From the IMG/VR virus record IMGVR_UViG_3300005614_000001, positions 1 to 64,000 of that record: a stretch of 64,000 bases of DNA, one strand, 5' to 3'. The DNA comes from a virus. Taxonomy: Duplodnaviria > Caudoviricetes. Positions 8,269 to 38,664 of this stretch are shown piece by piece (the first letter of the stretch is position 1; each line of letters begins with the position of its first letter). Under the pieces are notes generated by a model, which worked only from the letters and a program-made list of their open reading frames with translations, searched no databases and was not told the DNA's origin. Made by a program: the position numbers and the translations under genes.

Positions 8269-8269
8269 C

Positions 8270-8527
8270 ATGGATATAACATTAAAAATAATAATCTGTA
8301 TATATTTGATAGGAGTAATTATATTTTATTATCTAAATAAACTGTATGAAAAATATATTGGAAAAAGAGAATGGGACTGGAATAGTGTAAAAGATACAAT
8401 ACAGCTTATGTGGCTTTCATGGATTGGAATATTTTTAATAATAGTAGTTATTGTATGCATTCCTTTTTCACGGTTAAAAGAAAAGATTAATATTAAACTT
8501 CCAAAGAAGCCACCTTTCTGGCTATAA
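8270..8527 (+). CDS. small two-TM membrane protein
   Basis: Two hydrophobic segments and a basic C-terminus. Confidence 0.65.
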   Translation: MDITLKIIICIYLIGVIIFYYLNKLYEKYIGKREWDWNSVKDTIQLMWLSWIGIFLIIVVIVCIPFSRLKEKINIKLPKKPPFWL

Positions 8528-8538
8528 AATGATCAATT

Positions 8539-13974: not shown

Positions 13975-14185
13975 GTATATAGTGATATTTATAGTTATAT
14001 TAATTTCTTCCTGTAGCAATGATTTAGTTTATAGATGTAAGAATATATATACTGGAGAAGTAACGGGAATTTATACAGGAAAGATATTAAAAAAAGGAGA
14101 TGGAATTATGGAATGGGGTCAGGTATATATAGTAGAAAGTGATACTCCTATTTGTGAAATAAAAGTAAATACTACCCCATTATAA
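13967..14185 (+). CDS. putative small lipoprotein
   Basis: MNKYIVIFIVILISSC: basic N-region, hydrophobic core and lipobox-like Cys. Confidence 0.6.
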   Translation: MNKYIVIFIVILISSCSNDLVYRCKNIYTGEVTGIYTGKILKKGDGIMEWGQVYIVESDTPICEIKVNTTPL

Positions 14186-14385
14186 TGGAAATAAAGACAA
14201 TAAATGAATATAATTGTCCAATAGAGCTCCTGGAGGTAATAGAATATCTCCAGGAGAACCTTCCGGACAGGAATGCTAAATACTATGATTACAAAGCACA
14301 AGTTAAATTAATCAGACAGATGCATAATCAATACAATCACATTGTTGGATTTAATGCATTTGTTCAAAAATGGATACCAGAATGA
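14185..14385 (+). CDS. hypothetical protein
   Basis: TAATG-coupled 66-aa ORF. Confidence 0.55.
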   Translation: MEIKTINEYNCPIELLEVIEYLQENLPDRNAKYYDYKAQVKLIRQMHNQYNHIVGFNAFVQKWIPE

Positions 14386-14460
14386 TAACTGATATAGTTT
14401 GTTTTAGTGTGATAGTAGCTATAGTATTCATAGTATTTGCTACTAAAAAATAGATAGATC

Positions 14461-15018
14461 ATGAGTGAAATACATTTAACACCAGTAACTCTTACTCCTT
14501 ATCAGAAAGTGTGTTTAGAAATAAATCTTCTTAATCAGGGGCCTGGAAGAAGCAGGAAGAAAAGTGGGAGGAAAAAACCAATTAAAACCCCTGAAGTTAA
14601 AAGTAAAGAGGAAAAGTTTAAAAAGTTAAAGGAGAAACTGGAAAAGAAACAGAAATATCTTGTTACCAGACATGCAATACAGAGATTTAGAGAAAGAGTA
14701 GCAGACATCTCGGAAGATAGAATAAGAGAGATGCTCCTTTGTGAAAATTGTATAAAAAGGTATGATACTTTGGGAGATGGGAAGTATTCAATAAGACCAT
14801 TTCACCCGGTATGGGTATATGTTCATAATAGAAGGGTAGTTACTGTAATAAGCAGAATTGGGAGGTATGATATAAGACCGGGAGTTAAATTACAGCTACT
14901 CTCCTCTTACATGGATTATGTAATAGATGCTAAAGTTGAGCAGATAGTAGAGGGGAAAGATATAAAGATAGATTCATTTGAGAAGTATTTTAAACATAAT
15001 TTTAGGCTTATACTATGA
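14461..15018 (+). CDS. hypothetical protein with RelE/DUF4258-like H-A-x-x-R-x-x-E-R motif
   Basis: VTRHAIQRFRER...VVTVI, a pattern seen in RelE-like RNase folds. Confidence 0.5.
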   Translation: MSEIHLTPVTLTPYQKVCLEINLLNQGPGRSRKKSGRKKPIKTPEVKSKEEKFKKLKEKLEKKQKYLVTRHAIQRFRERVADISEDRIREMLLCENCIKRYDTLGDGKYSIRPFHPVWVYVHNRRVVTVISRIGRYDIRPGVKLQLLSSYMDYVIDAKVEQIVEGKDIKIDSFEKYFKHNFRLIL

Positions 15019-15245
15019 AAATAAAGGAAAAATATATAATAGTTGGAAGAGGGGAGGTATTCACTATTTCCTTGAAAGAAAATGGATACGAAGGGTTATT
15101 AAATAAAGATCTTAAGACATTTATAGGAAAAGATTTTGAATATGAAGATAAAAATTACCAAATAATAGGAGTAGAACATTATGCATCTCCTATTAATAAT
15201 GAATCATTTGATTTAATAGGATTACTTGTAAAGGAAAAGTTATGA
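15015..15245 (+). CDS. hypothetical protein
   Basis: 76-aa ORF with ATGA overlaps. Confidence 0.6.
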   Translation: MKIKEKYIIVGRGEVFTISLKENGYEGLLNKDLKTFIGKDFEYEDKNYQIIGVEHYASPINNESFDLIGLLVKEKL

Positions 15246-15652
15246 GAGATAAATATTACACACCAGATATAGAAGACCTATTTATAGGATATGAATGTGA
15301 GTACACTTCAGATATGTCAGTTTTTAAATGTGAAATTCAAGATTGTATAATAAAAGGTAAATTATGTGCTAGTGAATTAACTGATATTATTAAATGGGTA
15401 ACAGAGGATGGGGATGATTTATCCTTATTTGTAAGAACAAAATACCTGAATAAAGATGATTTAATTGCAGATGGATGGAAAGAAAGTGTAGGTAAAAATA
15501 ATTTATTTACAAAACATGAATCTTGTGTATTACATCTCTTAGAAGATCACTGGGTTATTATTCTTAAATACGAAGAAGAATACTTTTCCGGGGAAATCAA
15601 AAGTATAAATGAGTTAAGAAAACTGGAGAAATGGCTAAAACTTGCTCAATAG
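15242..15652 (+). CDS. hypothetical protein
   Basis: 136-aa ORF with KYYTPDIE and IKSINEL motifs. Confidence 0.65.
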   Translation: MRDKYYTPDIEDLFIGYECEYTSDMSVFKCEIQDCIIKGKLCASELTDIIKWVTEDGDDLSLFVRTKYLNKDDLIADGWKESVGKNNLFTKHESCVLHLLEDHWVIILKYEEEYFSGEIKSINELRKLEKWLKLAQ

Positions 15653-16074
15653 AAGGGTGTAATAAACCAGTGTGGGGAAAAGGGAAATGTTCTTATCACC
15701 AAGACAAAAAGCCCCTTAACCAAGGCTCCAATGGCCTTAAATCTACATCCAGGCTGAAGAGAAAGAAGAAAAGTACAGAACAAATAATACAGGAGAATGA
15801 ACAGAGAGATAAAATGCTCTCTTTATTTTCCACTATATGGAAGAAAAGAGGGCCTTATAGTGAGATATCAGGAGTATTTTTAGGAGGAGAGTGTAAAACA
15901 ATATTTATTCACCATATCCTTCCAAAATCAAAGTACCCACAACTATGTCTGGAAGAGGAAAACCTTATAATAATATCTTTTGAGGAACACCAGGAGGTAG
16001 AAAATGATATGTATAAATATGATGAAATAAATCAACGTAGAGAAAAAATAAAGGAAAAGTTTGGAATATTATAA
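15631..16074 (+). CDS. HNH endonuclease (NinG-like) with N-terminal Zn finger
   Basis: CSIEGC...CSYH, then HHILPKSKYP...EENL...EH. Confidence 0.75.
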   Translation: MAKTCSIEGCNKPVWGKGKCSYHQDKKPLNQGSNGLKSTSRLKRKKKSTEQIIQENEQRDKMLSLFSTIWKKRGPYSEISGVFLGGECKTIFIHHILPKSKYPQLCLEEENLIIISFEEHQEVENDMYKYDEINQRREKIKEKFGIL

Positions 16075-16111
16075 ATAATGATTATTTTTACAGTATAAAA
16101 TATTATAAAAC

Positions 16112-16489
16112 ATGCAAGAAAATCAAAGTGATAAGTTCTTCTCTCAGAAAAATATTGGAGGATTAGAAGACAATATCTTAAAGGAAGAGTTAAATAAGAT
16201 CCTTCAAAGAGGTTCTTCTACAGAAGATATAGAAGATATGAATAAAGAAAAAACACCTAAATTATCTTTTGGAGAGAAGGCAGTAGGACTAACTTTTAAC
16301 CCTGGTGGCATGAAGGAGGTTAATTCAATAAAAAAACTTTCTGCAGATCTTATAGATGAACTTAATAATCAAAGAGATAAAGCAAAGGAAGAAAATAATG
16401 AAGAAAAAATAGCTCAGTTTACTTTAGCTATTAGATCTATCCAGGAAGGACAACTATGGGGAGTAAAGGCGGCTACTTGGAAATATTAA
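16112..16489 (+). CDS. candidate Acb2/Tad1-like helical-hairpin anti-defence (nucleotide sponge) protein
   Basis: SFGEKAVGLTFNP...IKK..ADLID...LAI..IQEGQLWGVKAATW pattern, recalled from Acb2/Tad1 hairpin-domain proteins; not verified by search. Confidence 0.5.
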   Translation: MQENQSDKFFSQKNIGGLEDNILKEELNKILQRGSSTEDIEDMNKEKTPKLSFGEKAVGLTFNPGGMKEVNSIKKLSADLIDELNNQRDKAKEENNEEKIAQFTLAIRSIQEGQLWGVKAATWKY

Positions 16490-16499
16490 TCAAATAAAT

Positions 16500-16703
16500 A
16501 TGACTATAGAAGATTACATAAGTAAAGGATACACATACGGAACTCAAGAGGGAAAAGAAGGGAATATAGTATGGGCAGAATCCCCTCCACCAAATGAAAT
16601 GAGTATTATGTCTCATTATAAAGATGAGGAAGGATATGAAACAATATTATTAGAAATACTAGCTAAATTAAAAGAAGCATACACAAATAAAAACCATAAA
16701 TAA
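16500..16703 (+). CDS. hypothetical protein, tandem paralog 1
   Basis: MTIEDYISKGYTYGT...VWAESP. Confidence 0.65.
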   Translation: MTIEDYISKGYTYGTQEGKEGNIVWAESPPPNEMSIMSHYKDEEGYETILLEILAKLKEAYTNKNHK

Positions 16704-16945
16704 TGACTTTAAAAGATTATGAAAAGAAAGGTTATTCATGGGGAACAATTCAGAGTAAGTTTGATAGACCTGGAGAAATTTTCTCAGAAGAAGAGGTTTG
16801 GGTACAATCTCCTATAGTAAATGAAATAATTATTAAAGATAGGTTAAATGGTAGAAATGTTGAAGAAGTGGCAATGGAACTATTAGTTAATTTAAAAGAA
16901 ATAGTAGAAATAGATTTAAGTGACTTATTAACAAAAACCAAATAA
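16703..16945 (+). CDS. hypothetical protein, tandem paralog 2
   Basis: MTLKDYEKKGYSWGT...VWVQSP. Confidence 0.65.
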   Translation: MTLKDYEKKGYSWGTIQSKFDRPGEIFSEEEVWVQSPIVNEIIIKDRLNGRNVEEVAMELLVNLKEIVEIDLSDLLTKTK

Positions 16946-16948
16946 ATA

Positions 16949-17311
16949 ATGAACAAAAACATCTTTTATTGTAAGATTGATTCACAAGTACCAGGAGAGA
17001 AACTAGTAGTAGGCTTTCCTTTAGATCGTATCCTTAAAGTTATCCAGTATGCACCAAATAAGTTATGTGTACTCCTGGAGGACTTAAATGAGCAATCTGT
17101 TGAGAAACAGCGTATGACTAAAGGGAATAAAGTAGAGAATTATAGGGTGAAGGAAACTATTCAAACTATGTTTTACCTGGATGAAGTAGATAGTGTACGA
17201 CTAATGGCACTTTCTTCTATAGATGATGAAATTCTATCCCTGGAAATAACAAATGAAAGAGACCCTGCAGCTAAAGTAGAAAATAAACAAAAAGCTACAG
17301 AATTAGCATAA
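16949..17311 (+). CDS. hypothetical protein
   Basis: 120-aa ORF. Confidence 0.65.
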   Translation: MNKNIFYCKIDSQVPGEKLVVGFPLDRILKVIQYAPNKLCVLLEDLNEQSVEKQRMTKGNKVENYRVKETIQTMFYLDEVDSVRLMALSSIDDEILSLEITNERDPAAKVENKQKATELA

Positions 17312-17355
17312 AAACATTACCTTTGTACTATTCCATCTAATCATGTTTAATGATA

Positions 17356-17391
17356 CCCCTCTTAGTTTCTACTTCGAGGGGATTATTTTTT
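17356..17391 (+). terminator. rho-independent terminator-like hairpin
   Basis: CCCCTC...GAGGGG stem followed by ATTATTTTTT. Confidence 0.6.
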
Positions 17392-17457
17392 ATGAGCCGA
17401 TTATATAATTTATTCGGCTCAACACTTAACTTTAAATAAATTAATAACATTTTATAT

Positions 17458-20792: not shown

Positions 20793-21506
20793 TTATTTTT
20801 TGCTTTTAATGCTAAATAAATTTAAAGTAGCCCCCACTCCAATATATGGAGCTATTTTCCCTGTGTTAATTCCATATGAAGCCCCAATAGAGGGCCCAAA
20901 TACTATTACAGGGGTACGGGTGGTAATATCTATACTATATCCCTCCTGGATATGGTTATAGGGGTTTTTATTACTTATATCTATTTTCTCTGTTCCGGTA
21001 CCTAAGAATTTCTTCTTCTGGTATTTAGTGTAAGTGAGGGTATCTGAAGATATCAACCCAATATCTGCTCTCCCGATAGACATATCTACTGCTGCAGTAA
21101 TATCTATATAATTATCCCTTTTTTCAAAAGATAGTTCCTTTTTAGTAGTATCTATATATATTGGCAACTCCCGGAAGTAAGTATCCACCTGTACAGTGTA
21201 TTTACTCATTTCCTTGATCTTTATATCCTTATCTTTTATTAACTTCTTTAGGCTATCAAACTGTGCCTGGTAATTTTCTACATTCCCGGTAGTAACAGTA
21301 ATAGTAGAATGAGTATTGTTATTTTTATCCTTATATATCACTGCAGGTTTTAGAGATGGAGTTGGAAGTTGAGAAGTATTCCCCTTCCCACATCCTTTCA
21401 AAGAGAAGAATAATATAACAAAAATAACCCCTCCCAGCAGTATCTGCCAGGTAGAGATAGTAAACTTCTTTGAAAGGAAGTCCTTTATTAATAAAATAGT
21501 CCCCAT
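20793..21506 (-). CDS. putative spanin (Bacteroidota phage DUF6549-like)
   Basis: N-terminal TM followed by LKGC, a coiled coil, and C-terminal amphipathic beta strands GPSIGASYG...PYIGVGATLNL. Confidence 0.55.
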   Translation of the reverse strand: MGTILLIKDFLSKKFTISTWQILLGGVIFVILFFSLKGCGKGNTSQLPTPSLKPAVIYKDKNNNTHSTITVTTGNVENYQAQFDSLKKLIKDKDIKIKEMSKYTVQVDTYFRELPIYIDTTKKELSFEKRDNYIDITAAVDMSIGRADIGLISSDTLTYTKYQKKKFLGTGTEKIDISNKNPYNHIQEGYSIDITTRTPVIVFGPSIGASYGINTGKIAPYIGVGATLNLFSIKSKK

Positions 21507-26933: not shown

Positions 26934-27698
26934 TTAATTATTTACCTGAGTTCCATTGAACTCTTTTATTTCATTGTAGTATTTGGCTATTTCCTCATCT
27001 GTACTGGGAGATAGAGTGTAGTTTTCTTTTTCCCCTGTATCTGTAGAGTTAACCTGGTGTATTATGTATCTTTCTGGAGTTTCTGCACCACCGCTCATTT
27101 TAAATACTGATTGATCTCCTCCCCAGTTATAGATAAATGATGGTCTTCCATCATGGTCTGCAAGTATTGTATGCTCCCCTATTAAAGGATGAAGCCATGA
27201 ATCATGATACTTTACATTGAGATTTCCATATCCCTTCTCTTTAATATGCTCATAATCAACGAATATGGATGGTTCCATTACATTGTTCATTAGAGATATT
27301 TCTCCATGATTCTGCCTGAAGTAAGAATAGAGTGATTTATAAGCCCTCATATTTAAAGTGCGGGCTTTTACCATTCCCTCTACTCCATCTGATATAAAGG
27401 TTGGGAGCCTTAGGTCATCATCATCCCAGGAATTGACTATATCAAAATTTCCAAGGAGAGAAGCTTCTTCTAATGCATTATTATACTTTTCCCCTACAGA
27501 GTCAAACCTTTTAGTTGTATTTACCAGCACTACCTTCTTGTTTTGAGGAAGGGATAATTCAGGAAGCCTTATCTCTCTCCCGGAATTGTAAATAAATAAA
27601 GTACTATCCCCCGGATAATCCTGATCTATATAGCACTTCAAAGCTCTTTTTAAGCAAGAGAACCTATGGAAAGTGCAGCAAATAAGAAGAACATTCAT
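26934..27698 (-). CDS. glycosyltransferase family 2
   Basis: CCTFHR, YIDQDYP, SVGEKYN and WDDDD (DxD) motifs. Confidence 0.85.
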   Translation of the reverse strand: MNVLLICCTFHRFSCLKRALKCYIDQDYPGDSTLFIYNSGREIRLPELSLPQNKKVVLVNTTKRFDSVGEKYNNALEEASLLGNFDIVNSWDDDDLRLPTFISDGVEGMVKARTLNMRAYKSLYSYFRQNHGEISLMNNVMEPSIFVDYEHIKEKGYGNLNVKYHDSWLHPLIGEHTILADHDGRPSFIYNWGGDQSVFKMSGGAETPERYIIHQVNSTDTGEKENYTLSPSTDEEIAKYYNEIKEFNGTQVNN

Positions 27699-27708: not shown

Positions 27709-28098
27709 TTATTTTTTCTTTACCCCACCCTTATTACTACCAGGGGTAGTAAAATAAGACTTTATCTTATCCAGGGAGGTGTTTAAATAATCTGCTATTA
27801 TATATCCAAATTTAGCATATACAAACTCCACCAGTCTTTCCCCAAATAAAGTAGCAAGACATATAACTATAGTCTTAGGTTTATCCCATCCCTCCAGGTC
27901 ACATATCATAGATGCTAAACAACCACTAGTGATGCTTAATCCAGTAATAGCTAACCATGCCCAGAAGCTTCTTTTCCTCCCGGTATTTAGTTCGTGGGAG
28001 TATTTGCCAAGTAATCCAAGAGCTATAGGAACACCAACTTTCATAACTAAAGCAAGGAAATCTATTTTCTGTGAAGTCTGGGATGAGTTAGTTTCCAT
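27709..28098 (-). CDS. putative holin
   Basis: Two to three TM segments and a basic C-terminal tail, in the late module. Confidence 0.6.
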   Translation of the reverse strand: METNSSQTSQKIDFLALVMKVGVPIALGLLGKYSHELNTGRKRSFWAWLAITGLSITSGCLASMICDLEGWDKPKTIVICLATLFGERLVEFVYAKFGYIIADYLNTSLDKIKSYFTTPGSNKGGVKKK

Positions 28099-28526
28099 AT
28101 ACGGTAATAGGTGATAGAGGATACAATAAGGATATAAATTATTTCAAAAATGGTGATAGTAGCTGTAGGGAAAGTAAATTCATCTATACATTTTCCAATA
28201 GCAAAAGATATCATTCCCTGTAGTAGGATATACAGTTTTTTCAAAGAGGGGGAGGAATACCTTAAATAAAGTATTTTAGTTGTTTTTATCAAACAGAGGC
28301 AAAATATTACTTTTATAATATCCTCTGAAAAAAAATAAACAAAATTGTTTATAGTCTGTCCTCCAAGGAAGGAGCAATTATAATCATCTCCTGAATATAG
28401 ACTGATAAATAGAACTTTAAAAAGAGAAATAAGGATTATAAGAGTTACAGCTCTAAATAAAACCTTTGTTATTTTTACTATCAAGTTTATAGGTTTAATG
28501 TGGGCGGTGACTAGGATGTCCGCCAA
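28062..28526 (-). CDS. multi-pass membrane protein
   Basis: About four hydrophobic segments; true start uncertain. Confidence 0.55.
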   Translation of the reverse strand: MADILVTAHIKPINLIVKITKVLFRAVTLIILISLFKVLFISLYSGDDYNCSFLGGQTINNFVYFFSEDIIKVIFCLCLIKTTKILYLRYSSPSLKKLYILLQGMISFAIGKCIDEFTFPTATITIFEIIYILIVSSITYYRIWKLTHPRLHRK

Positions 28527-28776
28527 AAAATGCTTCAGAATTACAAGTATACTGCTGGTTATTACTATCTATTAATATTAAAGTAGAAGAAGATGTAGTT
28601 ATAGTACGGGATAAAACCTCTTCTCCAGGGCCATCCTGATCCCAATAGTTATCTATAAAGAAGGTACTATCATAAGAAGGCATAGAAGATGCTACTGTTC
28701 CAGGAATAGAGGTTCCATCTACTGAAATTACAATATCACTAAGAGATTGTACATAAAATGCTACTTGTTGGCTCAT
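28495..28776 (-). CDS. hypothetical protein
   Basis: 93-aa acidic ORF ending FFGGHPSHRPH. Confidence 0.6.
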   Translation of the reverse strand: MSQQVAFYVQSLSDIVISVDGTSIPGTVASSMPSYDSTFFIDNYWDQDGPGEEVLSRTITTSSSTLILIDSNNQQYTCNSEAFFGGHPSHRPH

Positions 28777-28786
28777 GTTTAATTTA

Positions 28787-29008
28787 TTATTTTGACTTAT
28801 CTGAAATTATGTGATTTATCCATCCTGAAGCTATAATTAATACAACCCCACCTATTCCAATACCTCCAAATATTTTATCACCATTGCTGGCTATATTGAA
28901 GTTTTTATCAAATGTATTAGTAGCTATAAAGTGCAAAGCACATGCAATAATAGATGCCACTCCTACTGCAGCCATTGATATAAGCAGCCATTTGGTGAAT
29001 TTTGTCAT
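28787..29008 (-). CDS. small two-TM membrane protein
   Basis: Two hydrophobic helices. Confidence 0.6.
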   Translation of the reverse strand: MTKFTKWLLISMAAVGVASIIACALHFIATNTFDKNFNIASNGDKIFGGIGIGGVVLIIASGWINHIISDKSK

Positions 29009-29010
29009 TT

Positions 29011-29328
29011 TTATTTATTTAAAAGTTTGAACATTACACTAAAAACTACATTCCACACTACTCCATATATCACTACTCCAATCCATAAAATAAAAGGAAA
29101 ATTATAGGTGAGGACAGAGGCTATAAGGAATATAATCATTAGTGATTTACATAAATGCCATCCATCTATATGATATCCAGCTATTTTTTTACAGCTCTTC
29201 CAGCTAACTTGTGGGTTCCAAAAATCAGGGGATAGTTTCTTAAATACCGAACTCTCAAAGTGAAAATCCAAAGTATCCATCACACTATTGCAAATAGCTG
29301 ATAAAATAAAGAATAGAATAGATAACAT
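29011..29328 (-). CDS. membrane protein (DxWH motif)
   Basis: NSVMD, FWNP..SW and DGWHL.K motifs, three TM segments. Confidence 0.65.
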   Translation of the reverse strand: MLSILFFILSAICNSVMDTLDFHFESSVFKKLSPDFWNPQVSWKSCKKIAGYHIDGWHLCKSLMIIFLIASVLTYNFPFILWIGVVIYGVVWNVVFSVMFKLLNK

Positions 29329-31550
29329 TAGTACTTTATTATACTTACTTTAAAACTGCCGGATGTGGGATCTAAAGCACCAGAGCTATAATTGTTAAAT
29401 CTTACTGTTACTGTATTTGCTGCACTAACCCAACAGCTAAAGCTACTATTGGATAATACACTACTATTTGGGACACCAACAGTAGGGATGTCTCCAACTG
29501 CTGCACCAGTTAATGTAATGGTTAAATCAGAAGATGTCTGTGCTGATGTAGAAGGGAAATCTAATGTTGATGTAGTTGTTAATACAGTTATATTTTCAAT
29601 TCTATGTGATGTGGTATTTTGGGCAGCTAAAGAATATCCACCTGAAGAATATGTTGGAATATTTACTATAACAGCACTATTCCCAACATACAAGGAACCT
29701 GTATCTGAGATATACCCAGTACTTTTAACATTTATTGTATCATCAGTAGTTAAAGCACTTCCTTTTATAAAGGATGCTCCTCCAGAATTAATAGCTATTG
29801 CATCATTCCCTAATTTGTTTTTTAATACCATAGCAGCAGAGCTATCTGAATTTAAAAAAACATAAAATGCTGATAAGTGTGTGGATGAAGTTCCAACTTG
29901 AAACCCTGATGTATTGGTAAACCCTTTTATTTGTAAAGATGAGAGATTTGATATCTTCCTATTGTATACTGCTATAGCAGTATCTTGGGCTATATAAGAT
30001 GCATATGTATTACTTACGATTGTATTAAAGGTATCTATAGTAAGTATTTGTTGTTGTTTATAAGAAGTGTCTATATTAATTGTTGCAGCCATTACTGCAT
30101 GACCTGCTGTATTAGGGTGAGTACTATCTCCAGAATTATATACAGGGAGCATACTATATAATGTTGTATTATCCCATAATGGAGTCCAGGTATCAATTAT
30201 ATGGTCTGTAGTAAAAGTTCTCTGTATATAATTTTTAAGAGGGCGTTCATCTGTTGCAGTACGTGGTGTTGGTAAAAGATGAATTACCGTGATACCAGCA
30301 TGTACAAGGGTATCGCGTAATGCATGATAATTAGCCTGCCATGTATTACTATCAACCTTGAATAAAATATCATTTCCTCCCATCATAATTAATGCATATT
30401 TTGGAGCAAGGTTTATCTTTTCTTTACAAGCTGCTAATGCCTGACCTACACCATCTGCACCACCTCCACTTATTATGTCTTTTGAATATCCGTTAAGCAA
30501 ATTTACAAAACGTGCATTAGTAGGAGCTGCTTGTCCTCCAGTTATACTATTTCCTATTACAATGGAATTAAGATTTTTAGGCTTTAGTATATAATATTTC
30601 CAGTTTATAAGTAGAGCATTTAGACCCAAATCTGACACACGAGGATTTGATGTATTATGCATTGCAAAAGGACTACCTGATGGAGAGGTTGGTTGAATAT
30701 AATTAATAGACCACTTTTTTGTTATATTAGTAATAGTGATTGTATACGTGGTTTCATACCTAAGAAGATCAAATCTCATAGTATCGCCTACACTATATGC
30801 AGTATCTGCTACACTTCCAAAAAATGTACTGTGACCCTCATTTATATCAAATGCAGGAAGTCCTGTAAAAATAGTTCCCTTATTACTAACATAGGTACCA
30901 TTTACAGTATGCTCATATCCAAATGGATTTATACTATGAAATCCTACCTGAATACCATAATCTGCAGTAGTTTTTCCTTGCCAAACAAAAGTTATAGATT
31001 GTACACACTTCTCTACCATTGTAGCAGTGTTATATTCTATGTAATCAGTATAAGTACCATTATTACCATTAAATAACAATCCATTTGCTGTAAATGTTCC
31101 ATGTGTCCCCACTAAAGTAAAACCTGCTGGGAGAGAACCCTGAAGGTTTGTATTAAATACTGTAAGTGTATCATAAAGAGGATATTCTATTTTGTTATTT
31201 AACGAAAGCTGCAACCTATTAGCAGTATCTGCTATATTTACTGAATTTTGAGTACTGTCTGCAATATATATTGGAATAGTTACATAATTACCAGCTATTG
31301 CAAACAATTTCCAACTACTACCATTCCAGAAATAAGGAAGCCCATTAGCAGAACTAAACCTAATCCTGGGAGTAGAAAGTGGAAGATTATCGTATAATCC
31401 GTTAGTGTCTAATGGAGAGAATGCAAGACTGCTATCTATCTTTATACGATTATATTCATTACCGTAGTTATGGGCATTATAATATGGTATCTGCCCAATA
31501 GCAGAAGTAAAAGGTATTAAAAGAGAAAGTATTAGAAATAATTTTTTCAT
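29328..31550 (-). CDS. signal-peptide-bearing fibre-like protein with SGNH/GDSL esterase domain
   Basis: Sec-type signal MKKLFLILSLLIPFTSAIG|Q. SGNH blocks GNSIT, GGND and DSTHP. N- and C-terminal domains shared with 31855..33033. Confidence 0.8.
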   Translation of the reverse strand: MKKLFLILSLLIPFTSAIGQIPYYNAHNYGNEYNRIKIDSSLAFSPLDTNGLYDNLPLSTPRIRFSSANGLPYFWNGSSWKLFAIAGNYVTIPIYIADSTQNSVNIADTANRLQLSLNNKIEYPLYDTLTVFNTNLQGSLPAGFTLVGTHGTFTANGLLFNGNNGTYTDYIEYNTATMVEKCVQSITFVWQGKTTADYGIQVGFHSINPFGYEHTVNGTYVSNKGTIFTGLPAFDINEGHSTFFGSVADTAYSVGDTMRFDLLRYETTYTITITNITKKWSINYIQPTSPSGSPFAMHNTSNPRVSDLGLNALLINWKYYILKPKNLNSIVIGNSITGGQAAPTNARFVNLLNGYSKDIISGGGADGVGQALAACKEKINLAPKYALIMMGGNDILFKVDSNTWQANYHALRDTLVHAGITVIHLLPTPRTATDERPLKNYIQRTFTTDHIIDTWTPLWDNTTLYSMLPVYNSGDSTHPNTAGHAVMAATINIDTSYKQQQILTIDTFNTIVSNTYASYIAQDTAIAVYNRKISNLSSLQIKGFTNTSGFQVGTSSTHLSAFYVFLNSDSSAAMVLKNKLGNDAIAINSGGASFIKGSALTTDDTINVKSTGYISDTGSLYVGNSAVIVNIPTYSSGGYSLAAQNTTSHRIENITVLTTTSTLDFPSTSAQTSSDLTITLTGAAVGDIPTVGVPNSSVLSNSSFSCWVSAANTVTVRFNNYSSGALDPTSGSFKVSIIKY

Positions 31551-31558
31551 ATAGTGAT

Positions 31559-31828
31559 TTAGTAAAAAATAATTGTGTATTGTTCCCCTGTAAGAAACTC
31601 ATTTCCTCCAATGAGTTGCACCCCCATATTATACATTCTTTGGTAATGTACCCCTTCAAAAAGGACCCCTACCCCATTTTTCATAATTAGGAAGTTCTTT
31701 GCCTGGATGTCAGGGTTATCATAAACTACCCCTCCATTTAAAGGAGTGTATGTTCCACCATCACCAATAATAAATTGGATTGGGAGATCTGTCTGCAGAC
31801 AATTTTCTGCTTGGCAGCAATTATTCAT
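31559..31828 (-). CDS. small beta-rich adaptor protein (paralog A)
   Basis: CC...C N-terminus; PIQFIIG...GVHY...G.QLI...F.TGE.YTI.FY. Confidence 0.7.
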   Translation of the reverse strand: MNNCCQAENCLQTDLPIQFIIGDGGTYTPLNGGVVYDNPDIQAKNFLIMKNGVGVLFEGVHYQRMYNMGVQLIGGNEFLTGEQYTIIFY

Positions 31829-31854
31829 TTATTTTATTTTTATTTTATTTTTAA

Positions 31855-33033
31855 TTACTTTCTTACTATTACTTTAAATGTCCCTGAAGCTGGGTCTGCC
31901 GATCCTCCAGATGTATTATGAAATCTTATTGTAACAGTGTTTGCAGAGGAAACAAACCCCCAAAAAGTACCAACAGTAGCACTGGCAGAAGGAACACCAA
32001 TATATACAGCATCTCCATCTGCTGCTCCAGCTACGGTTAAAGTCAGGTCTGAAGAAGCATTTGAAGAGGTACTTGGAAAATCAAGAGCCCCAGTAACCAC
32101 TAAAGGCAGTGCAGCAGTTTCCACTCTATGGGTAGTAGAGTTTACTACTAATGCACTATCCCCGCCAGATGTGTATGGTTGAGCTTGATATAGATATAAA
32201 TTTCCTTTACTTGAGAATTTAGTAAAAATATTTCCTAAAGTATCCTGGAACTGTAAAAGATCTCCAAACTGACTCACCCCTTTTCTTATTACTAAAGTGG
32301 TAGTAGAAAGGGTGTCATTTGCATTTGCAGATAGCAGAACAGTATTTTTCTGTGCTATTGCCACCCACTGCCCAATGTAGAATATACCCCACCTTTGGTT
32401 AGTAGCTGCATTAAATGCTTCTACAATATTAATAGTGTGAATTTGATTATTATAAGTACTTATTTGTGTACATGCTATATCATTAGTCTTTACTCCCCCT
32501 GTATTTAAAGTCCCTGTCTGATCAGTTACTTGCAAATGATTAAATTCATAAAATATCTTCCCGCCTCTAAGATTTATAAAAGGAGTATTATCAGGGGAGG
32601 TGAGATTAGCATTAGTCCCCAAAGTTATATAACTATTCTGTGTAGTATCCGGGGAATAATAACCTCCTTTATTCTTTACTCCTGTAAATATCCAGGGTTG
32701 TGTGGTGTCTGCTGCAAATTTATTAGAAGTAAGGGTAAGGTTATACCCTGCAGTGTAAGTATTATTGTTAGTAACTTTTGTATAATGCTTTCCATCAAAA
32801 GAAAGGTATAAACTACTATCCTGTGTACAATACATAGCTGCCCCTACAAATCCTGATACTATAGTATCTGTACTATGTTTTATCGGAAATGCAAAAATAC
32901 TATCAACCCTTATTCTTGTAAACCAGTTCCCATAGTTACCTGCTTTATAATATACCTGGGCTTTACTATTATTTATAACAGAAAAGGTTATTAAAAAAGC
33001 AAGAACTAATTTTACATATATACTTTTAATCAT
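31855..33033 (-). CDS. signal-peptide-bearing fibre-like protein (paralog of 29328..31550, without SGNH)
   Basis: Signal MIKSIYVKLVLAFLITFSVINNSKA|Q. NYGN..RI..DS..AF N-domain and LDFPSTS...SDLT...ANTVT.RF.N...DP.SG.FKV C-domain. Confidence 0.8.
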   Translation of the reverse strand: MIKSIYVKLVLAFLITFSVINNSKAQVYYKAGNYGNWFTRIRVDSIFAFPIKHSTDTIVSGFVGAAMYCTQDSSLYLSFDGKHYTKVTNNNTYTAGYNLTLTSNKFAADTTQPWIFTGVKNKGGYYSPDTTQNSYITLGTNANLTSPDNTPFINLRGGKIFYEFNHLQVTDQTGTLNTGGVKTNDIACTQISTYNNQIHTINIVEAFNAATNQRWGIFYIGQWVAIAQKNTVLLSANANDTLSTTTLVIRKGVSQFGDLLQFQDTLGNIFTKFSSKGNLYLYQAQPYTSGGDSALVVNSTTHRVETAALPLVVTGALDFPSTSSNASSDLTLTVAGAADGDAVYIGVPSASATVGTFWGFVSSANTVTIRFHNTSGGSADPASGTFKVIVRK

Positions 33034-33060
33034 TTTAGTTATATTTATATCTATTAATGA

Positions 33061-33312
33061 TTAATAGAAAGTGATGGTAAAAGTTTCTCCTGTATTAAAC
33101 ATATCCGGGGAAATAAGTTGAAATCCCCCTATTGGGGAGAGGGTATAATGTACCCCTGGAACAAGGAACCCCCATATGTTCCTATGTATCAAATAATTAC
33201 GTGCAAATAAAGTTGTGTTATAATAAACACTGGTTCCTGCAGCAGGAGCTCCTGCAGTAGTCCCTATAATAAACTGTATAGGAGAGGGTAGAGGATCACA
33301 TCCACAGGTCAT
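33061..33312 (-). CDS. small beta-rich adaptor protein (paralog B)
   Basis: CGC N-terminus; PIQFIIG...GVHY...GFQLI...FNTGETFTITFY. Confidence 0.7.
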   Translation of the reverse strand: MTCGCDPLPSPIQFIIGTTAGAPAAGTSVYYNTTLFARNYLIHRNIWGFLVPGVHYTLSPIGGFQLISPDMFNTGETFTITFY

Positions 33313-33344
33313 AATGATAGAATTTAATGTTTTAATTTATTGTA

Positions 33345-33689
33345 TTAATACAATATAGTATATACTTCCCCGGTATTGAACACTCTGCCTCCAATAAGGG
33401 TGACTACACCAGTGGTATTATTAAAAGTATAATCTACTCCATTTACCAATGTCCCAAATCCATTTAGGAATATAATAGGGCTCTTCGAAATAAGAGCAGT
33501 ATTGGTATAGGTAGTAGAACCATTTACCGGAGTATTTGGACCACTATCTCCTATAGTGAATGTAGTGGAGTTAGTAGCAGATATACCACCAGCAGCTATT
33601 GCTGCCAGGTAGCCACTTTGAATTTGGAGTATCTGGTATATATTTTTAAACCACCTATCCTGGTTAGTTTGTACTGGAGGAGTTGCCAT
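33345..33689 (-). CDS. small adaptor protein (paralog C, with N-terminal helix)
   Basis: FTIGD...P.NG...LNG.G.L..GVDY...FNTGEVYTILY. Confidence 0.7.
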   Translation of the reverse strand: MATPPVQTNQDRWFKNIYQILQIQSGYLAAIAAGGISATNSTTFTIGDSGPNTPVNGSTTYTNTALISKSPIIFLNGFGTLVNGVDYTFNNTTGVVTLIGGRVFNTGEVYTILY

Positions 33690-33789: not shown

Positions 33790-36700
33790 TTAATGTGCTC
33801 TATTTTGTGTAGTGAACTTAATATTCATCTCTTTTGCAAAATCAGGAGATGCAAGGGCAGCATAGTTAATTAACTGATTTCCCAAAGGGAAGGATTTTAT
33901 CACATATTTCAACGGGTGAGCATTTGCTACCATTTTTTCTCCTTTAGTGGTATTCCCAAGTTCTTCTTCGGTAAGTCCAAAAGCATATCTCCCTAAATTA
34001 GAGAGTACATTTTCTGCATCAGTAACCACTCCAAATGCCGGGAGGATACTACCTCCAGCTACTTGCTGCCACTGCCAAGGATGATAATAAAAGGCCATTT
34101 CGTCTGATATTTTATCCAGCATCCTAACTCCATATATCCAATACCCTCTTTCTTCTTTAGTAGCTTCATCTGCATCCGGAATGAGGGCTTTTGCTGCCAG
34201 GAATGTAGAAAGTACCCCAATATAAGCTAATATATCCCTCATCTGTCCTCTTACATTATCCCTCATCAGATCATAGAAGTCATCTTTAGATATAGTGAGC
34301 TCCTTCCCGGTTTCTCTAAGGTATTGTTCTTTCTTCTTAGCCATAAATTCTTCCATCATCTTCAATCCTTGTTCATTACCAGCCATGATGTTTTTCATAT
34401 TCCCAATAATACGAAGAGGGTTTTGTACTAATATTTTCCCCACCATCCTCACCTTTCCATATTCATAGCTATCTGTACCAGGGATATACTTAAGACTTCC
34501 AAACCTGCTATCTGCTATAGGGACTATCCAGTTTTTAAAGGTCATCATCATCCTTGCCATAGTTCTCATAGAAGCTCTGCTCCTATCATCATCACTCATG
34601 GCACCAGTAGATTGCTTTTCTATCTGTTGTATTAACCCTCTGAGCTTCCCCATTTCCTTCCCATAAAGGTCCAGTCCATCTATCACCAGTTTATCATCTA
34701 CTATTTTAGCAAGTTTTGGGAGAGATTTTGTAGCCTTCAGGTCATCTATCTCTTTTTCCATTTTTTCTTCCAGCTCTCTATTTTGCCCAGGGGTACCGAA
34801 ATATCTTTGCCCTTCATACTTAGCCCTCACATACTGCCTGGTATTTTCTATCTTTCCATCTATAAGGACTGCATTATCCAACATGGCTATAGCTATGGGC
34901 TCCTGTACTAACTTATCACTATAACGGAATATAGAATATACAGCTTCACTCATGGAAGCATTTGCCACTTTAGATACAGATAGTTCTTTCTTTCTATCAG
35001 CAGCAGTTTGCTCTACAAATGGGACTATCTGGTTTAGAAGATAGGCATATACATTACCTTCTTTTCCTCTGAACATCCTGGTATCAGTCATTGCTTCTGC
35101 TTTCCTGAGATCTGCACCATCAAAGAAGGTTCTTTTATTTGTATAGTTCTGCAGCTTACCACCAATAAGGTTAGATAGTGGGATACCAATATTTAAAGCA
35201 AGGATCTTATTCTTATAAAACTGACTCACTCCTTCCAATAATCCATTTGCTGTAACTACTCTATCCTTCACATTTTCCGGGAGAAGTTGTGTACCCAGGG
35301 TCTTATTTATTGCTTTAAATACATTTTCAGTTCTCTCTCCAATTTTTCCTATAGTTTTCCCTTCCAGGATGTCATTTACATTCCTCTGCCCATAATATAT
35401 TCCCTGTACAAACTCATCCAGCATTTTAGCATTATATTCATTCTCGGGGGAGGTTTGTACCACACCATCCTTCCTCACTATCTTTCCAAACCTATTGGCC
35501 TGTATAGAAGATTTATTATGCTCTACATACTGCAGGGTTTTTACCAGATTCTCTATTCCAATTAGAGATTCATATCTTATAAGCTGTTCATTATAAGACT
35601 GTATTACAGAGAATAGATTAGTAGAGAATTGACTATCATCTTCTATTCCTCTATTGGAAGTAAAACTAAACGGGAGATGGTTTATCAATTTCCCGGTAAG
35701 GGGATCCTGGTATTGATAAGTATTTTCATTATCATTTATACTTATACCATTTATGAACCCATCTGCAATTTTTAAATTCCCCCCAAATGCTAATTTTTCA
35801 GCTACTCCACTTTTCATAACATATGGAAGAAAAGATCTCCTCACCTGTGGCTGAAGTATTCCAAGACTTACTCCTTTATCTACCCTCTCCTGGATATAGT
35901 TGTAGAAATCCAGTACTGGCTTATTCTCAGGGGATAAAAGCTGCTTATATTCATCAGTATGCCATTTATCTAAAGCAAATGATTTCATCTCATTATTTCC
36001 CCATCCAGGAGCCTTGTCATTAGAGAGATTGTATTTATCCTTTACTTTCTGTATTTCTTCATTTCTCCTCTTCTGGTTTTCTTCATCTACTGCATCATAG
36101 ATAGTGCTGTTTATAGCAGCTATTCTTTTTTGCTCTCTTTGGGCTATGTGTTCCCGGTATGCAGCAAGATTTATATTATCCTTATACCACTGGGTATTTT
36201 TATTCTCCTGGGCTTTTTTGAATTCTTTGAAAAAATCACTTTGTATAGTATCTATTCTTTGGTTTGTTTTCTCTCCCTTACTGTTCTTTTTGTACAGGAG
36301 GTCAAACATATTCTTTGGATTTAGCCCTCTGGCTTCACTCCATTTTAAATATTCTTCTCGGTGGTGAGCTACTATTTCCTTCTCTTTTTCCTTCAACAGC
36401 TCAGCCACCTGGAAGTTTGGATTGGTGAGTTTATATAAAGAATTAGCTGCAACAGTAGACCCTCTGCCCAATCCTCTAAACCAGTTCCCTATATTTTTAT
36501 TCTCTCTTTCTGCAGTTATAAGTCCACTTACTCCAAGTCTATCCCCAAGGAATTTATCAGCAAAATTGAATAAAGTATCATTCAAATCCTTTACAGCACT
36601 TCTTACATCTGAAGAAGTTACTTTCAAATCCTCCTGAACATCTTTATTTGTTGCTGCAGCATCTTTTAAGTGTACATCTATATCTTCATATGGAATATAC

Positions 36701-38664
36701 TTATCTAACAGATACAGGATCTTATGAGCATACAGGTTTAGACTTTCATCTGTTGGAGAAGTACTATCTACTCCTTCAAAAGTGTCTTTATAGGTATTCA
36801 CTATATCTTCTGCTTCTTTATTTAATATCTTTGCATAAGATAGTGTTGGAGAGATATTCTTCCTCACCTGAAGCTCTCTTATTGCCTTATATACAGATAG
36901 TAGTTGTTCTCTTTTCAGATGCTTTCTCCCTTCAGTTACCTTACTATCCTGGATATGACTATACAGGGCATTTAGTTTATCTATTTGCTTATCTATAGTC
37001 TCATCTCCTGTTCTTTCATCAACTGTTGGAACGGGGAGGAGATAGTCGTATTTCTCTAATGAAACATTTGCATCTCCGATCTTCACTCCATTTAAAGTAG
37101 CTTCTTTATCCTTAAAGGTAAAAGAGAACAGGATTGGGATAGCCCTTGTCATACCAAACTCCTTCACTCCATAAGCATCTTTTAATATCTTCTTATATTC
37201 TCCAATTTGTATATTGTAGGCTTCTTTCTTATAAGATGGAATGTCCTTATTCTTATTTATATCCAGGTTGACAAATTTCCAATCCAGGATATTAACCTTC
37301 CCATTAGGAGTGATAGCCATGAAATCTATAGTGCCAGCTTCATCTTTATTAGGATCATATACCGGAGTTTCTGTTAAAAATCTTGTACCTGCAGGAAAAG
37401 ACAGTAACCTTTGAGAAATGTTATCTTCTAACCCTTGATATATCCTTTCATCATTTGGAGAGAGTTGAGATACATCAGTTTTTTCTAATGGAGTGGTACG
37501 AAGAAAACCATTTTCATCTGTATACCTGGATATGATATCCTGTATATCAGCATGTCCTGCAGTACCTTTCTCTGCAAAGATATTAGCCTGACTACTCTGT
37601 TCTATATCACTTCCTGGAAATACCTTTCCATAATAAGCTTTTGCTTTATCAGTAACCCTATTCTTTACATCTACTCCATTTACCTGGTACTTCTTTCCGG
37701 TTTGGTCATAAGTTATCTTATTAGCCTGCTCCAGGATAGATTTATATACCCTTGTTTGTTCCGGGGAAAGATCTTCCTTTTCCTGCAGGGAATAAAAGCT
37801 ATCTCCTCCTCCATTTAAATCATCTACACTCCCTTCAAACCTATTATCCAATACTTGTTCTGCTACTTCTGTAAATGGATCAAACTTTCCTTTAATAAAT
37901 AAATTACGGAAGAACTCTTTTACTTTATCCCACCATGAGTCAGCTTTTGCAAGGAGTTCAGGGTTTTCTGTACCCCATTCATTCTTTTCAATAATGCGCT
38001 CTACCAGGAGTTTAGTCATAGCCTCCTCCTTTAACTTTATCACATCCAGGGTTCCATCTTCATTCCTGTAGGCTTTACCGTAAGTATCTACTGTAGATTT
38101 ATATATCTGATAACCCCCAATTTTATTTAACATCTCCTTATATAAAGGAGAGTTCTTATCTTTTAGAATTTGCACAGCTATATGCATCACTTCTTCAGCT
38201 TTAGCTATACTTTCTTTCCCTTCAGCTATATAAGCTATCCCCTTCACTGTATCTGCCAATCCTATAATAGCATCTCCTATATTCTCCCTGGATAACTTAA
38301 CCCCATTTATTACTAATTGTGATAGTGGTTTTAAATCTATTCCAACTCTTTTAGCAAACTCATCTATTTTCTTTAAAGTATCTTTATTGGCTTCAGAAGA
38401 TGGAACTGCAGATTTCTTAGATAGATAAGTGCCAGGAAGAGTTATCATTCCTAAAGTAGGCTCTCCTATTTCATTGAGTTCCCCTTTAAAAGAAGATGAC
38501 GAAGTAACCCAATCTCCCATCTTTTGTATATACTCCGGGGACAGAAGTTGTTTATATAATCTATCTGCTTCTTCCTCATTATTAGTGAGGGAGAATAGTT
38601 CACTCCATGTTCTTGAAGTCTCCTGCTTTCCTGTGATGGGGCTATTTATTAATCTACATGCCAT
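33790..38664 (-). CDS. large ejected/cargo protein with PD-(D/E)XK (RecB/Cas4-like) nuclease domain
   Basis: 1624 aa, directly downstream of the virion RNAP. KGTAGH, ET.VYD, AGTIDF, ILDWK and QIGEY motifs. Confidence 0.75.
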   Translation of the reverse strand: MACRLINSPITGKQETSRTWSELFSLTNNEEEADRLYKQLLSPEYIQKMGDWVTSSSSFKGELNEIGEPTLGMITLPGTYLSKKSAVPSSEANKDTLKKIDEFAKRVGIDLKPLSQLVINGVKLSRENIGDAIIGLADTVKGIAYIAEGKESIAKAEEVMHIAVQILKDKNSPLYKEMLNKIGGYQIYKSTVDTYGKAYRNEDGTLDVIKLKEEAMTKLLVERIIEKNEWGTENPELLAKADSWWDKVKEFFRNLFIKGKFDPFTEVAEQVLDNRFEGSVDDLNGGGDSFYSLQEKEDLSPEQTRVYKSILEQANKITYDQTGKKYQVNGVDVKNRVTDKAKAYYGKVFPGSDIEQSSQANIFAEKGTAGHADIQDIISRYTDENGFLRTTPLEKTDVSQLSPNDERIYQGLEDNISQRLLSFPAGTRFLTETPVYDPNKDEAGTIDFMAITPNGKVNILDWKFVNLDINKNKDIPSYKKEAYNIQIGEYKKILKDAYGVKEFGMTRAIPILFSFTFKDKEATLNGVKIGDANVSLEKYDYLLPVPTVDERTGDETIDKQIDKLNALYSHIQDSKVTEGRKHLKREQLLSVYKAIRELQVRKNISPTLSYAKILNKEAEDIVNTYKDTFEGVDSTSPTDESLNLYAHKILYLLDKYIPYEDIDVHLKDAAATNKDVQEDLKVTSSDVRSAVKDLNDTLFNFADKFLGDRLGVSGLITAERENKNIGNWFRGLGRGSTVAANSLYKLTNPNFQVAELLKEKEKEIVAHHREEYLKWSEARGLNPKNMFDLLYKKNSKGEKTNQRIDTIQSDFFKEFKKAQENKNTQWYKDNINLAAYREHIAQREQKRIAAINSTIYDAVDEENQKRRNEEIQKVKDKYNLSNDKAPGWGNNEMKSFALDKWHTDEYKQLLSPENKPVLDFYNYIQERVDKGVSLGILQPQVRRSFLPYVMKSGVAEKLAFGGNLKIADGFINGISINDNENTYQYQDPLTGKLINHLPFSFTSNRGIEDDSQFSTNLFSVIQSYNEQLIRYESLIGIENLVKTLQYVEHNKSSIQANRFGKIVRKDGVVQTSPENEYNAKMLDEFVQGIYYGQRNVNDILEGKTIGKIGERTENVFKAINKTLGTQLLPENVKDRVVTANGLLEGVSQFYKNKILALNIGIPLSNLIGGKLQNYTNKRTFFDGADLRKAEAMTDTRMFRGKEGNVYAYLLNQIVPFVEQTAADRKKELSVSKVANASMSEAVYSIFRYSDKLVQEPIAIAMLDNAVLIDGKIENTRQYVRAKYEGQRYFGTPGQNRELEEKMEKEIDDLKATKSLPKLAKIVDDKLVIDGLDLYGKEMGKLRGLIQQIEKQSTGAMSDDDRSRASMRTMARMMMTFKNWIVPIADSRFGSLKYIPGTDSYEYGKVRMVGKILVQNPLRIIGNMKNIMAGNEQGLKMMEEFMAKKKEQYLRETGKELTISKDDFYDLMRDNVRGQMRDILAYIGVLSTFLAAKALIPDADEATKEERGYWIYGVRMLDKISDEMAFYYHPWQWQQVAGGSILPAFGVVTDAENVLSNLGRYAFGLTEEELGNTTKGEKMVANAHPLKYVIKSFPLGNQLINYAALASPDFAKEMNIKFTTQNRAH

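Follow-up and report, generated by a model that had tools for sequence, protein, structure and literature searches.

Composition of the cassette

The window analyzed here is a stretch of 64,000 nucleotides (nt) that forms the first 64 kb of one 116.9-kb contig, the viral record IMGVR_UViG_3300005614_000001. On its minus strand, just after the gene for a 1624-residue protein, lie five packed genes with gaps of 8–100 nt. They form a cassette of three small paralogs (114, 83 and 89 residues) interleaved with two larger paralogs (392 and 740 residues). A preliminary description, made from the letters of the DNA, had listed them as adaptor C, adaptor B, protein 1, adaptor A and protein 2, and all five open reading frames (ORFs) are present on the minus strand in that order and at the positions it gave.

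Adaptor C (33345–33689, 114 residues) is leaderless and has no cysteine. Adaptor B (33061–33312, 83 residues), also leaderless, starts with MTCGC, continues as a beta-sandwich and lies 27 nt upstream of protein 1 (31855–33033, 392 residues). The leaderless adaptor A (31559–31828, 89 residues) starts with MNNCCQAENC, again followed by a beta-sandwich, and lies 8 nt upstream of protein 2 (29328–31550, 740 residues). The Cys-tipped starts that had been described for A and B are both there. Protein 1 consists of a leader, an N-terminal domain (N-domain), a poorly modelled middle and a C-terminal lectin-like beta-sandwich (C-domain). Protein 2 consists of a leader, an N-domain, a ConA-like jelly roll, an SGNH esterase, a shaft and a C-domain.

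Proteins 1 and 2 resemble each other at both ends. Their last ~160 residues are 42% identical (E 5e-26) and residues ~6–45 are 45% identical (E 1e-6), while the middles are unrelated by alignment. The N-domain of protein 1 reads QVYYKAGNYGNWFTRIRVDS..., and its model is poor, with a predicted local distance difference test score (pLDDT) of about 40–55. The C-domain of protein 1 is a well-folded beta-sandwich in the AlphaFold model, with a core at residues ~305–392 (31858–32121, pLDDT >92). Alignment to protein 1 and a match to a C-domain hidden Markov model place the core of protein 2 at residues ~655–740 (29331–29588). The shared N-domain and the unrelated middles are as the preliminary description had them. 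The shared C-domain of ~85 residues is also real, with the qualification that the homologous region is longer, ~160 residues, and contains the well-folded core.

The best solved match of the C-domain is the C-terminal domain of KP32gp38 (Z 8.8, root-mean-square deviation 2.7 Å, 82 residues). The next matches are the C-termini of the phi297, LKA1 and HK620 tailspikes, the R-pyocin fibre foot and H-type lectins, the other tips scoring Z 5.3–6.1. The tips of KP32gp38 (9qrm/6tku), LKA1 gp49 (4ru4), phi297 gp61 (4ru5) and R-pyocin (6cxb, 6cl6) share with the C-domain its fold (Z 8.8, 6.1, 6.0 and 6.0) and its distal position, at a sequence identity of only 10–17%. The large proteins are thereby predicted to carry a distal C-terminal tip domain with the fold of solved fibres and tailspikes. 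Protein 1 as query found 128 proteins, all matching through the C-terminal domain only, and the bodies attached to this domain vary among collagen repeats, pectate-lyase-type spikes, Mtd_N and GDSL. The domain is phage-borne, being present on at least 350 IMG/VR contigs versus 18 loci in 185,579 bacterial and archaeal species genomes, most of these on contigs of metagenome-assembled genomes.

The esterase of protein 2 (30093–30560, residues 331–486) matches PF13472 with 41.7 bits against a cut-off of 32.9 (E 2.3e-10), which bears out the SGNH esterase proposed for one of the two middles. The catalytic blocks IGNSIT (block I), MGGNDI (block III) and GDSTHP (block V) can be read in the sequence, and a search of the PDB sequences gives a weak match to the SGNH proteins 9kr0/9kqz. 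Residues ~115–330 resemble ConA-like jelly rolls (Atlas model, template modelling score about 0.5–0.56). Leader aside, protein 2 as modelled reads as the ordinary build of a receptor-modifying tailspike, and the predicted esterase likely strips acyl groups from a surface polysaccharide receptor. Sequence and models together support the view that the large proteins are fibre- or tailspike-like receptor-binding proteins with conserved ends and swappable middles.

Each large protein begins with a predicted Sec signal peptide. In protein 1 it covers residues 1–25 (32959–33033): MIKSIYVK is followed by LVLAFLITFSVI and NNSKA, with the predicted cut between A25 and Q26, and the AlphaFold2 model has a helix at residues 2–21 (pLDDT ~85). 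In protein 2, by sequence reading and the heuristic given below, it covers residues 1–19 (31494–31550), with MKK, LFLILSLLIPF and TSAIG in succession and the predicted cut between G19 and Q20. Both N-termini can be read as a positively charged stretch, 11–12 hydrophobic residues, a small-x-small site and Gln. These are the features of signal peptidase I (SPase I) substrates that follow the Q-rule, namely a positive n-region, an h-region of 10–15 residues, small residues at −3 and −1, and Gln at +1. This rule, Gln at +1 in Sec/SPase I substrates, was reportedly described for Bacteroidota by Bochtler and colleagues in 2018. Proteins 1 and 2 resemble such substrates in having Gln at +1 after an AxA-type site; they differ in that the known substrates are host envelope proteins, not phage fibres.

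A leader was called where a 9-residue window within the first ~35 residues reached a mean hydropathy of 2.2 or more and was preceded by K or R. Of all 155 non-overlapping ORFs in the 116.9-kb genome, only proteins 1 and 2 combine a leader-like N-terminus with Gln at +1 and show no other sign of a membrane or lipoprotein anchor; the scan also flagged 20793–21506 (lipoprotein-like) and 95953–96810. Complete C-domain homologues are leader-like in 81 of 113 cases, and in 69 of these [AGSC]Q follows the hydrophobic stretch. The other 32 are leaderless, showing that the C-domain itself does not need export. Among the ORFs of the fetched loci, 61 of the 99 C-domain carriers are leader-like and 58 have the small-x-small-Gln pattern, against 153/872 and 67/872 (Gln pattern) for background ORFs of at least 150 residues in the same loci. 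The leaders of the family are very diverse in sequence and constant in their parts, the pattern expected from selection for export. The cleavable signal peptide followed by Gln, noted earlier for both large proteins, is therefore seen by sequence reading, by a crude rule and as a helix in the AlphaFold2 model, and it recurs in about two thirds of the homologues.

Two further observations concern the spread of these leaders. On a 104-kb viral contig (L003, 7154–17756), four consecutive proteins (1041, 587, 1599 and 179 residues) all have leaders ending before Gln, and only the first carries the C-domain. The C-domain also occurs on seven contigs binned as Rhizobium, Saccharimonadales, Gammaproteobacteria, Planctomycetaceae, Paceibacterota/Parcubacteria and Limnocylindria. 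Several leaders there break the Gln rule; these may be mis-binned phage contigs, or the host range may extend beyond Bacteroidota.

Bacteroidota are said to have a general O-glycosylation system, described by Fletcher, Coyne and colleagues, that acts on the sequon D(S/T)(A/I/L/V/M/T). Mature protein 1 has 7 sequons versus 1.6 expected from shuffles (p 0.0005), and mature protein 2 has 9 versus 3.2 (p 0.0025). Fifteen other proteins of the window, taken as controls, have 38 versus 38.4 expected, and the adaptors have none. The sequon is thus enriched 3- to 4-fold in the two putatively exported proteins and not in the controls. In this excess the mature parts of proteins 1 and 2 resemble substrates of the system, the known ones being host envelope proteins.

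Adaptors A, B and C are 42–45% identical, with 24 invariant columns. In adaptor C an N-terminal amphipathic helix segment (..DRWFKNIYQILQIQSGYL..) precedes the beta-sandwich of ~75 residues. A profile search found 152 clusters among 1.84 billion representatives. The family occurs as stand-alone proteins of 74–140 residues, as the C-terminal half of 165–195-residue proteins, and as a domain in larger proteins, where it lies at residues ~80–165 of leaderless proteins of the receptor-binding type (380–700 residues). At least two Cys within the first 12 residues are present in 13 of 60 small relatives (MCNCS, MCCCK, MCCNCTC), and other small relatives have an amphipathic helix and then CC. A real leader was found in one of 150 relatives. 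This is a 441-residue protein (P0259) that starts MTMKKLLFTSFILLILALSSQG/Q and has its adaptor-like domain near the C-terminus, an exception among the otherwise presumably cytoplasmic adaptors.

The AlphaFold2 model of adaptor A has a mean pLDDT of 90.1. Its fold matches the N-terminal attachment domains of CBA120 TSP4 (Z 7.9 and 7.5), the fibre N-termini of Carin-1, P-SCSP1u, LME-1 and cyanophage A4 (Z 6.6–7.1) and the N-terminus of T7 gp17 (Z 5.3). Foldseek finds tail fibres and tailspikes in BFVD (E 4e-3 to 3e-2), and the PDB gives the same set. The small proteins, as modelled, look like free-standing versions of the N-terminal anchors of podovirus fibres and tailspikes. They had been proposed as adaptors; the structure search and the lack of a leader agree with such a role, in the more specific form of a virion anchor. 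A tail-fibre assembly chaperone of the Tfa/gp38 type was considered and rejected. Such chaperones have a chaperone fold and are encoded immediately downstream of the fibre gene, whereas the small genes here lie upstream of their large partners and their fold matches fibre anchors, not chaperones.

The branched tailspikes of podoviruses and Ackermannviridae (CBA120 TSP1–4, 7rfv/7rej; T7 gp17, 7boz) offer the closest build. There, too, a small N-terminal beta-sandwich anchors receptor-binding proteins, either on the tail or on one another, a deacylating esterase can be one of the distal proteins, and a particle carries several receptor-binding proteins. An example is the two-protein system gp66/gp63.1 of G7C, in which gp63.1 is an SGNH esterase tailspike. 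In the present cassette, by contrast, the anchor would be a separate protein of 83–114 residues and the distal proteins have Sec leaders. To our knowledge the members of these systems are all leaderless and assembled in the cytoplasm. A disulfide or metal-binding role of the Cys-rich tips is plausible by analogy with crAss001, whose tails are stabilized by disulfides at the fibre docking hubs (PMC10172136).

Fused and split arrangements among relatives

An alignment of the C-terminal third of the 1624-residue protein with two homologues retrieved 54 related viral contigs (up to 164 kb), in which the genes directly downstream were read. Homologues of this protein precede fibre genes in all 54. 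Most of these contigs encode a ~129-residue protein starting MRTAAICPTCATYENALCIIYNG, one large leaderless fibre with a Cys-rich tip such as MNVTCSAEPCPVILNATCVFYEG, or both. The ~129-residue protein comes first after the large homologue and is the most conserved gene at that position; often a large fibre does not follow, and the protein may act as a tail knob or a minimal fibre base. A Cys-rich tip is present in 18 ORFs of at least 300 residues, none of which has a leader, and a leader followed by Gln is present in seven, none of which has a Cys tip. Four of the seven leader-bearing fibres (L115, L116, L137 and L139) directly follow a small leaderless protein that is Cys-rich or carries the adaptor domain.

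Individual loci display both arrangements. In L103/L137 the order is a 1595-residue protein, a 119-residue adaptor (helix plus MMCCK), a 78-residue adaptor, a 567-residue protein, leaderless fibres and a GT2-type glycosyltransferase. The 119-residue adaptor is the positional counterpart of adaptor C. The 567-residue protein starts MKKLLLILGLLITSFASNA/QWYNQPYYNAHNYGNEFGKLQIDS, which corresponds to the leader and N-domain of protein 2, and has a different C-terminal half. In L009/L115 a 148-residue protein with a Cys-rich tip and an adaptor-like end is followed by a 1321-residue leader-bearing fibre with the C-domain. Both L103 and L009 keep the order of ~1600-residue protein, adaptor or adaptors, leader-bearing fibre and GT2. 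In another locus (L001) the Cys-rich tip is fused directly to a leaderless fibre that ends in the C-domain. These arrangements are suggestive of a rule in which the docking tip sits on a separate leaderless protein wherever the fibre body bears a leader. The many bodies joined to the C-domain, together with the leader and N-domain retained in L103 in front of another C-terminus, also agree with the modular, swappable passengers that had been suggested.

Sequence queries reached little beyond these loci. Residues 1–100 of protein 2 as query found only protein 2 itself, and the N-domain relatives (L103/L137, L019 and L024) came from a motif scan. The adaptor alignment as locus query found nothing, and a degenerate DNA pattern for IQFIIGDG gave chance matches only, in giant-virus contigs. 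The crAss001 fibres gp22–26 have no leaders, so leaders are not a general trait of crassviruses.

Leader-bearing proteins at a fibre position are also encoded by two cultured Cellulophaga phages. In phi10:1 (KC821618), gp091–gp095 come after the tape-measure and distal tail genes and ahead of genes for membrane proteins, and their leaders end in SA/Q, FG/Q, SA/Q, NA/Q and FS/Q. GenBank annotates gp091–094 as structural proteins from experimental tandem mass spectrometry (MS/MS) proteomics. In the podovirus phi18:3 (KC821620), gp085–087 have A/Q leaders and are likewise annotated as structural by MS/MS. The preliminary description had called signal peptides on proteins of a structural module unexpected; with these phages as precedent that premise holds only in part.

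The regions involved (phi10:1 14101–17392 and phi18:3 5545–9584) have shared leader modules and a variable remainder. Gp093 of phi10:1 and gp086 of phi18:3 share the leader and the first 118 residues (83% identity), and gp094 and gp087 share the first ~65 residues (59%). Phi10:1 is a siphovirus and phi18:3 a podovirus; the binding target of the shared module is therefore not tied to one tail type. These proteins are like proteins 1 and 2 in their large size, their fibre position just before membrane or lysis genes, their A/Q leaders, and their conserved N-end with a variable rest. Unlike the present cassette, no interleaved anchor-domain genes were seen among them. They have no sequence similarity to proteins 1 or 2 or to the adaptors, and no paper commenting on their leaders was found in a literature search.

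Genome setting and neighbouring genes

The tail-ring protein family CrAss_Ring_1 (PF24228) has a match at 62279–63241 (E 2e-7, 31.1 bits against a cut-off of 27). The window also encodes giant proteins of 4019, 1827 and 1624 residues, the last with a weak tblastn match to the uncultured phage cr108_1. With some reserve, these features suggest an uncultured crAss-like phage. The Gln rule, the low G+C of the DNA and the crAss-like genes point to a host among the Bacteroidota.

The gene for the 1624-residue protein (33790–38664, minus strand) lies directly upstream of the cassette and downstream of the gene for the 4019-residue giant, and serves as a synteny marker. Directly downstream of the cassette (27709–29328, minus strand) are genes for small membrane proteins of 105, 73, 154 and 129 residues, with 2–3 hydrophobic segments each, and a soluble 93-residue ORF. 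Judged by the hydrophobic segments, this is possibly a lysis cassette with holin or other lysis genes. None of its ORFs matches a PHROG or Pfam family, and no endolysin was identified in the window. If it is a lysis cassette, the fibre-like genes would sit at the usual junction from fibre to lysis genes. The cassette in any case lies where fibre genes are found, after the block of giant proteins and the 1624-residue gene and before small membrane proteins. Fibre genes followed by lysis genes are also the order in crAss001.

A GT2-type glycosyltransferase is encoded at 26934–27698 of the window, at 11536–12315 of L103 and at 10370–11125 of L009, starting with MN(V/I)(L/A)LICCT.. or MKVCAIAATCGRH... 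Its position immediately after the fibre genes is conserved in several related phages, and the gene deserves mention beside the sequon excess of the putatively exported fibres. The 237-residue protein at 20793–21506 (minus strand) has a hydrophobic N-terminal segment ending in FFSLKGC, which may be a lipoprotein box. Its sole match is PHROG 14010, a family of unknown function, and it is a candidate spanin-like or surface lipoprotein.

Beyond the window, at 68091–69230 (minus strand), lies a gene for a 379-residue leaderless protein that starts MGSGCNSTPNSNKCTTITSSDCTQYVGSPYSS and has a Cys-rich tip like those of related leaderless fibres. Given this tip, the phage probably also has a conventional one-piece fibre.

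Most neighbouring genes gave no PHROG or Pfam match, and the cassette DNA has no blastn match among GenBank phages. Promoter and terminator scans of the cassette, together with a search for the TTTG..TAnnTTTG pattern, gave nothing above chance. The cassette genes are probably read with the late genes.

Proposed assembly in two compartments and the alternatives

The assembly of tailed phages is described in textbooks as taking place wholly in the cytoplasm. The present cassette suggests a different route for part of the tail. In the reading that we favour, tentatively and with rather more than a little doubt, the fibres are made in two parts: an anchor that stays in the cytoplasm, and a distal part that is exported and joins the particle around lysis. 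The small leaderless anchors, with a Cys-rich tip in A and B and a helical one in C, would be produced in the cytoplasm and attached to the particle in that compartment. The large proteins would be the distal, sugar-recognizing parts, one with a ConA-like module and an SGNH esterase and both with a lectin-like tip. From the Sec leader cut before Gln on each of them we propose that they are exported and fold in the periplasm, where the general system of the host would probably O-glycosylate them. They would come together with the anchor-bearing particles only once lysis disrupts the envelope, and would dock through the conserved N-domain that follows the leader.

Sequence and models show the anatomy, the paralogy, the predicted folds, the conserved leader-like N-termini, the sequon excess and the fused or split arrangements of the relatives; we infer export and processing of the leader, glycosylation, binding of the anchor to the distal part, and when and where the two join. 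The more general statement, that tails are built in two compartments with a distal part that is Sec-exported, probably O-glycosylated and added at lysis, is one that we hold with still more reserve. If such a route exists, this cassette, in which anchors alternate one by one with exported parts, would be its clearest trace at the level of genes.

The kinds of part involved are already known: tailspike tips, SGNH esterase spikes, podovirus-type anchors and leaders that follow the Q-rule. Two features are not described in the literature searched, namely a Sec leader on a tailed-phage fibre, and a fibre divided between two genes, one for a leaderless anchor and one for a leader-bearing distal part, twice in tandem. 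In a literature search of incomplete coverage, no report of tail fibres with leaders came up for any tailed phage. Outside phages, the mosaic adhesive trimer fibres of Bdellovibrio (PDB 8ond, a weak structural match) and, reportedly, Pantoea WceF (PMC7949094) are exported fibre- or tailspike-like proteins of bacteria; they indicate that trimeric phage-fibre-like proteins can use an export route. Both differ from the present proteins in that they are cellular, work on the surface or matrix of the cell that makes them and belong to no virus particle.

Several points weigh against the two-part reading. The leader calls rest on sequence reading and a crude rule of hydrophobicity and charge. The adaptor fold is matched at middling scores (Z below 8; Foldseek E no better than 4e-3), which may reflect a common beta-sandwich; the consistent theme of the matches and the position of the domain in larger relatives give them more weight. 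The separation of Cys tips and leaders in the 54 contigs is not significant, the overlap expected by chance being about 0.6. Of the 98 loci that were retrieved by their C-domain, 96 lack the adaptor domain, which makes the pairing local to this lineage, and in L019 and L024 the N-domain has no adaptor gene upstream. A tblastn search of the GenBank phages found the C-domain in a single record, uncultured, and in no cultured phage. Taken over all members of the C-domain family, sequons are in slight excess (1.29-fold with a leader, 1.18-fold without), so that the sequon signal is specific to proteins 1 and 2 and is no family rule. Joining after lysis would also have to compete with dilution.

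Evidence on incorporation into the virion comes from the Cellulophaga phages, whose MS/MS annotation is the sole experimental evidence that bears on it. It favours joining the virion over display on the cell. The proteins are not homologous to those of the cassette, and the precedent is therefore one by analogy; in addition, the annotation could reflect co-purifying envelope material.

The main alternative, which we consider rather unlikely, is that proteins 1 and 2 are exported and never join the particle. Their esterase and lectin modules would then strip or mask the receptor on the infected cell's own envelope, resulting in superinfection exclusion, in progeny freed from debris or in easier release, and each small protein would be a complete mini-fibre of the virion in its own right. 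The leaders and the sequon excess point to a periplasmic life as such, protein 2 has an intact predicted SGNH esterase with a ConA-like module, and the genes lie right before the possible lysis genes. The ~129-residue Cys-tipped proteins stand alone, with no fibre after them, in L114, L120, L125 and L127, and with the Cys-tipped leaderless fibre at 68091–69230 the particle could manage without proteins 1 and 2.

A Sec leader alone, however, reaches only the periplasm, and no lipoprotein signal or signal of the type IX secretion system (T9SS) was found with Pfam and NCBIfam. The proteins are built like virion fibres: the N-domain is conserved, the distal parts are exchangeable and the tip is of the tailspike type. 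Leader-bearing proteins at the fibre position are annotated as virion proteins in both Cellulophaga phages, and the alternation of adaptor and fibre, kept in L103, L115, L116 and L139, suggests pairs that belong together.

It is less probable still that the leader-like N-termini are used for export only in part or not at all. The fibres would then assemble in the cytoplasm, the helix being a docking or trimerization element or a transient membrane tether. This would require no new assembly route; it is consistent with the third of the C-domain homologues that work without a leader and with the weak sequon excess across the family. Against it, all three parts of an SPase I substrate occur with the phylum-specific Gln at +1 in 58 of the 61 leader-bearing locus ORFs, and the great diversity of the leaders fits selection for export and cleavage, not for a fixed docking helix. 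The 3- to 4-fold sequon excess of proteins 1 and 2, absent in the 15 controls, argues in the same direction.

A T9SS C-terminal sorting domain, which would make the proteins phage-encoded T9SS cargo on the cell surface, could account for a leader combined with a conserved beta-sandwich of ~85 residues at the extreme C-terminus, its ..GTFKVxVxK end and the Bacteroidota setting, but we rejected it as very improbable: protein 1 has no Pfam or NCBIfam match at E up to 1 and protein 2 only GDSL families, in libraries that include the T9SS sorting domains (Por_Secre_tail, TIGR04183/TIGR04131, with no match in either protein), the 50 best structural matches are tailspike or fibre tips and lectins with no T9SS domain among them (alone not decisive), the C-domain is phage-borne, and its 32 leaderless carriers among 113 could not reach the T9SS.

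If the two-part reading is right, and host-recognition parts of many Bacteroidota phages mature in the periplasm, this would explain how fibres could gain glycans of the host type or disulfides. Expression of such fibres in a heterologous host without the leader may then give wrong products. The location of the anchor and the distal part on separate genes makes their binding testable in vitro, and the general question can already be addressed in the cultured Cellulophaga phages, which have analogous proteins. Should such a route operate, host-range prediction and engineering would change for crAss-like and other phages of Bacteroidota.

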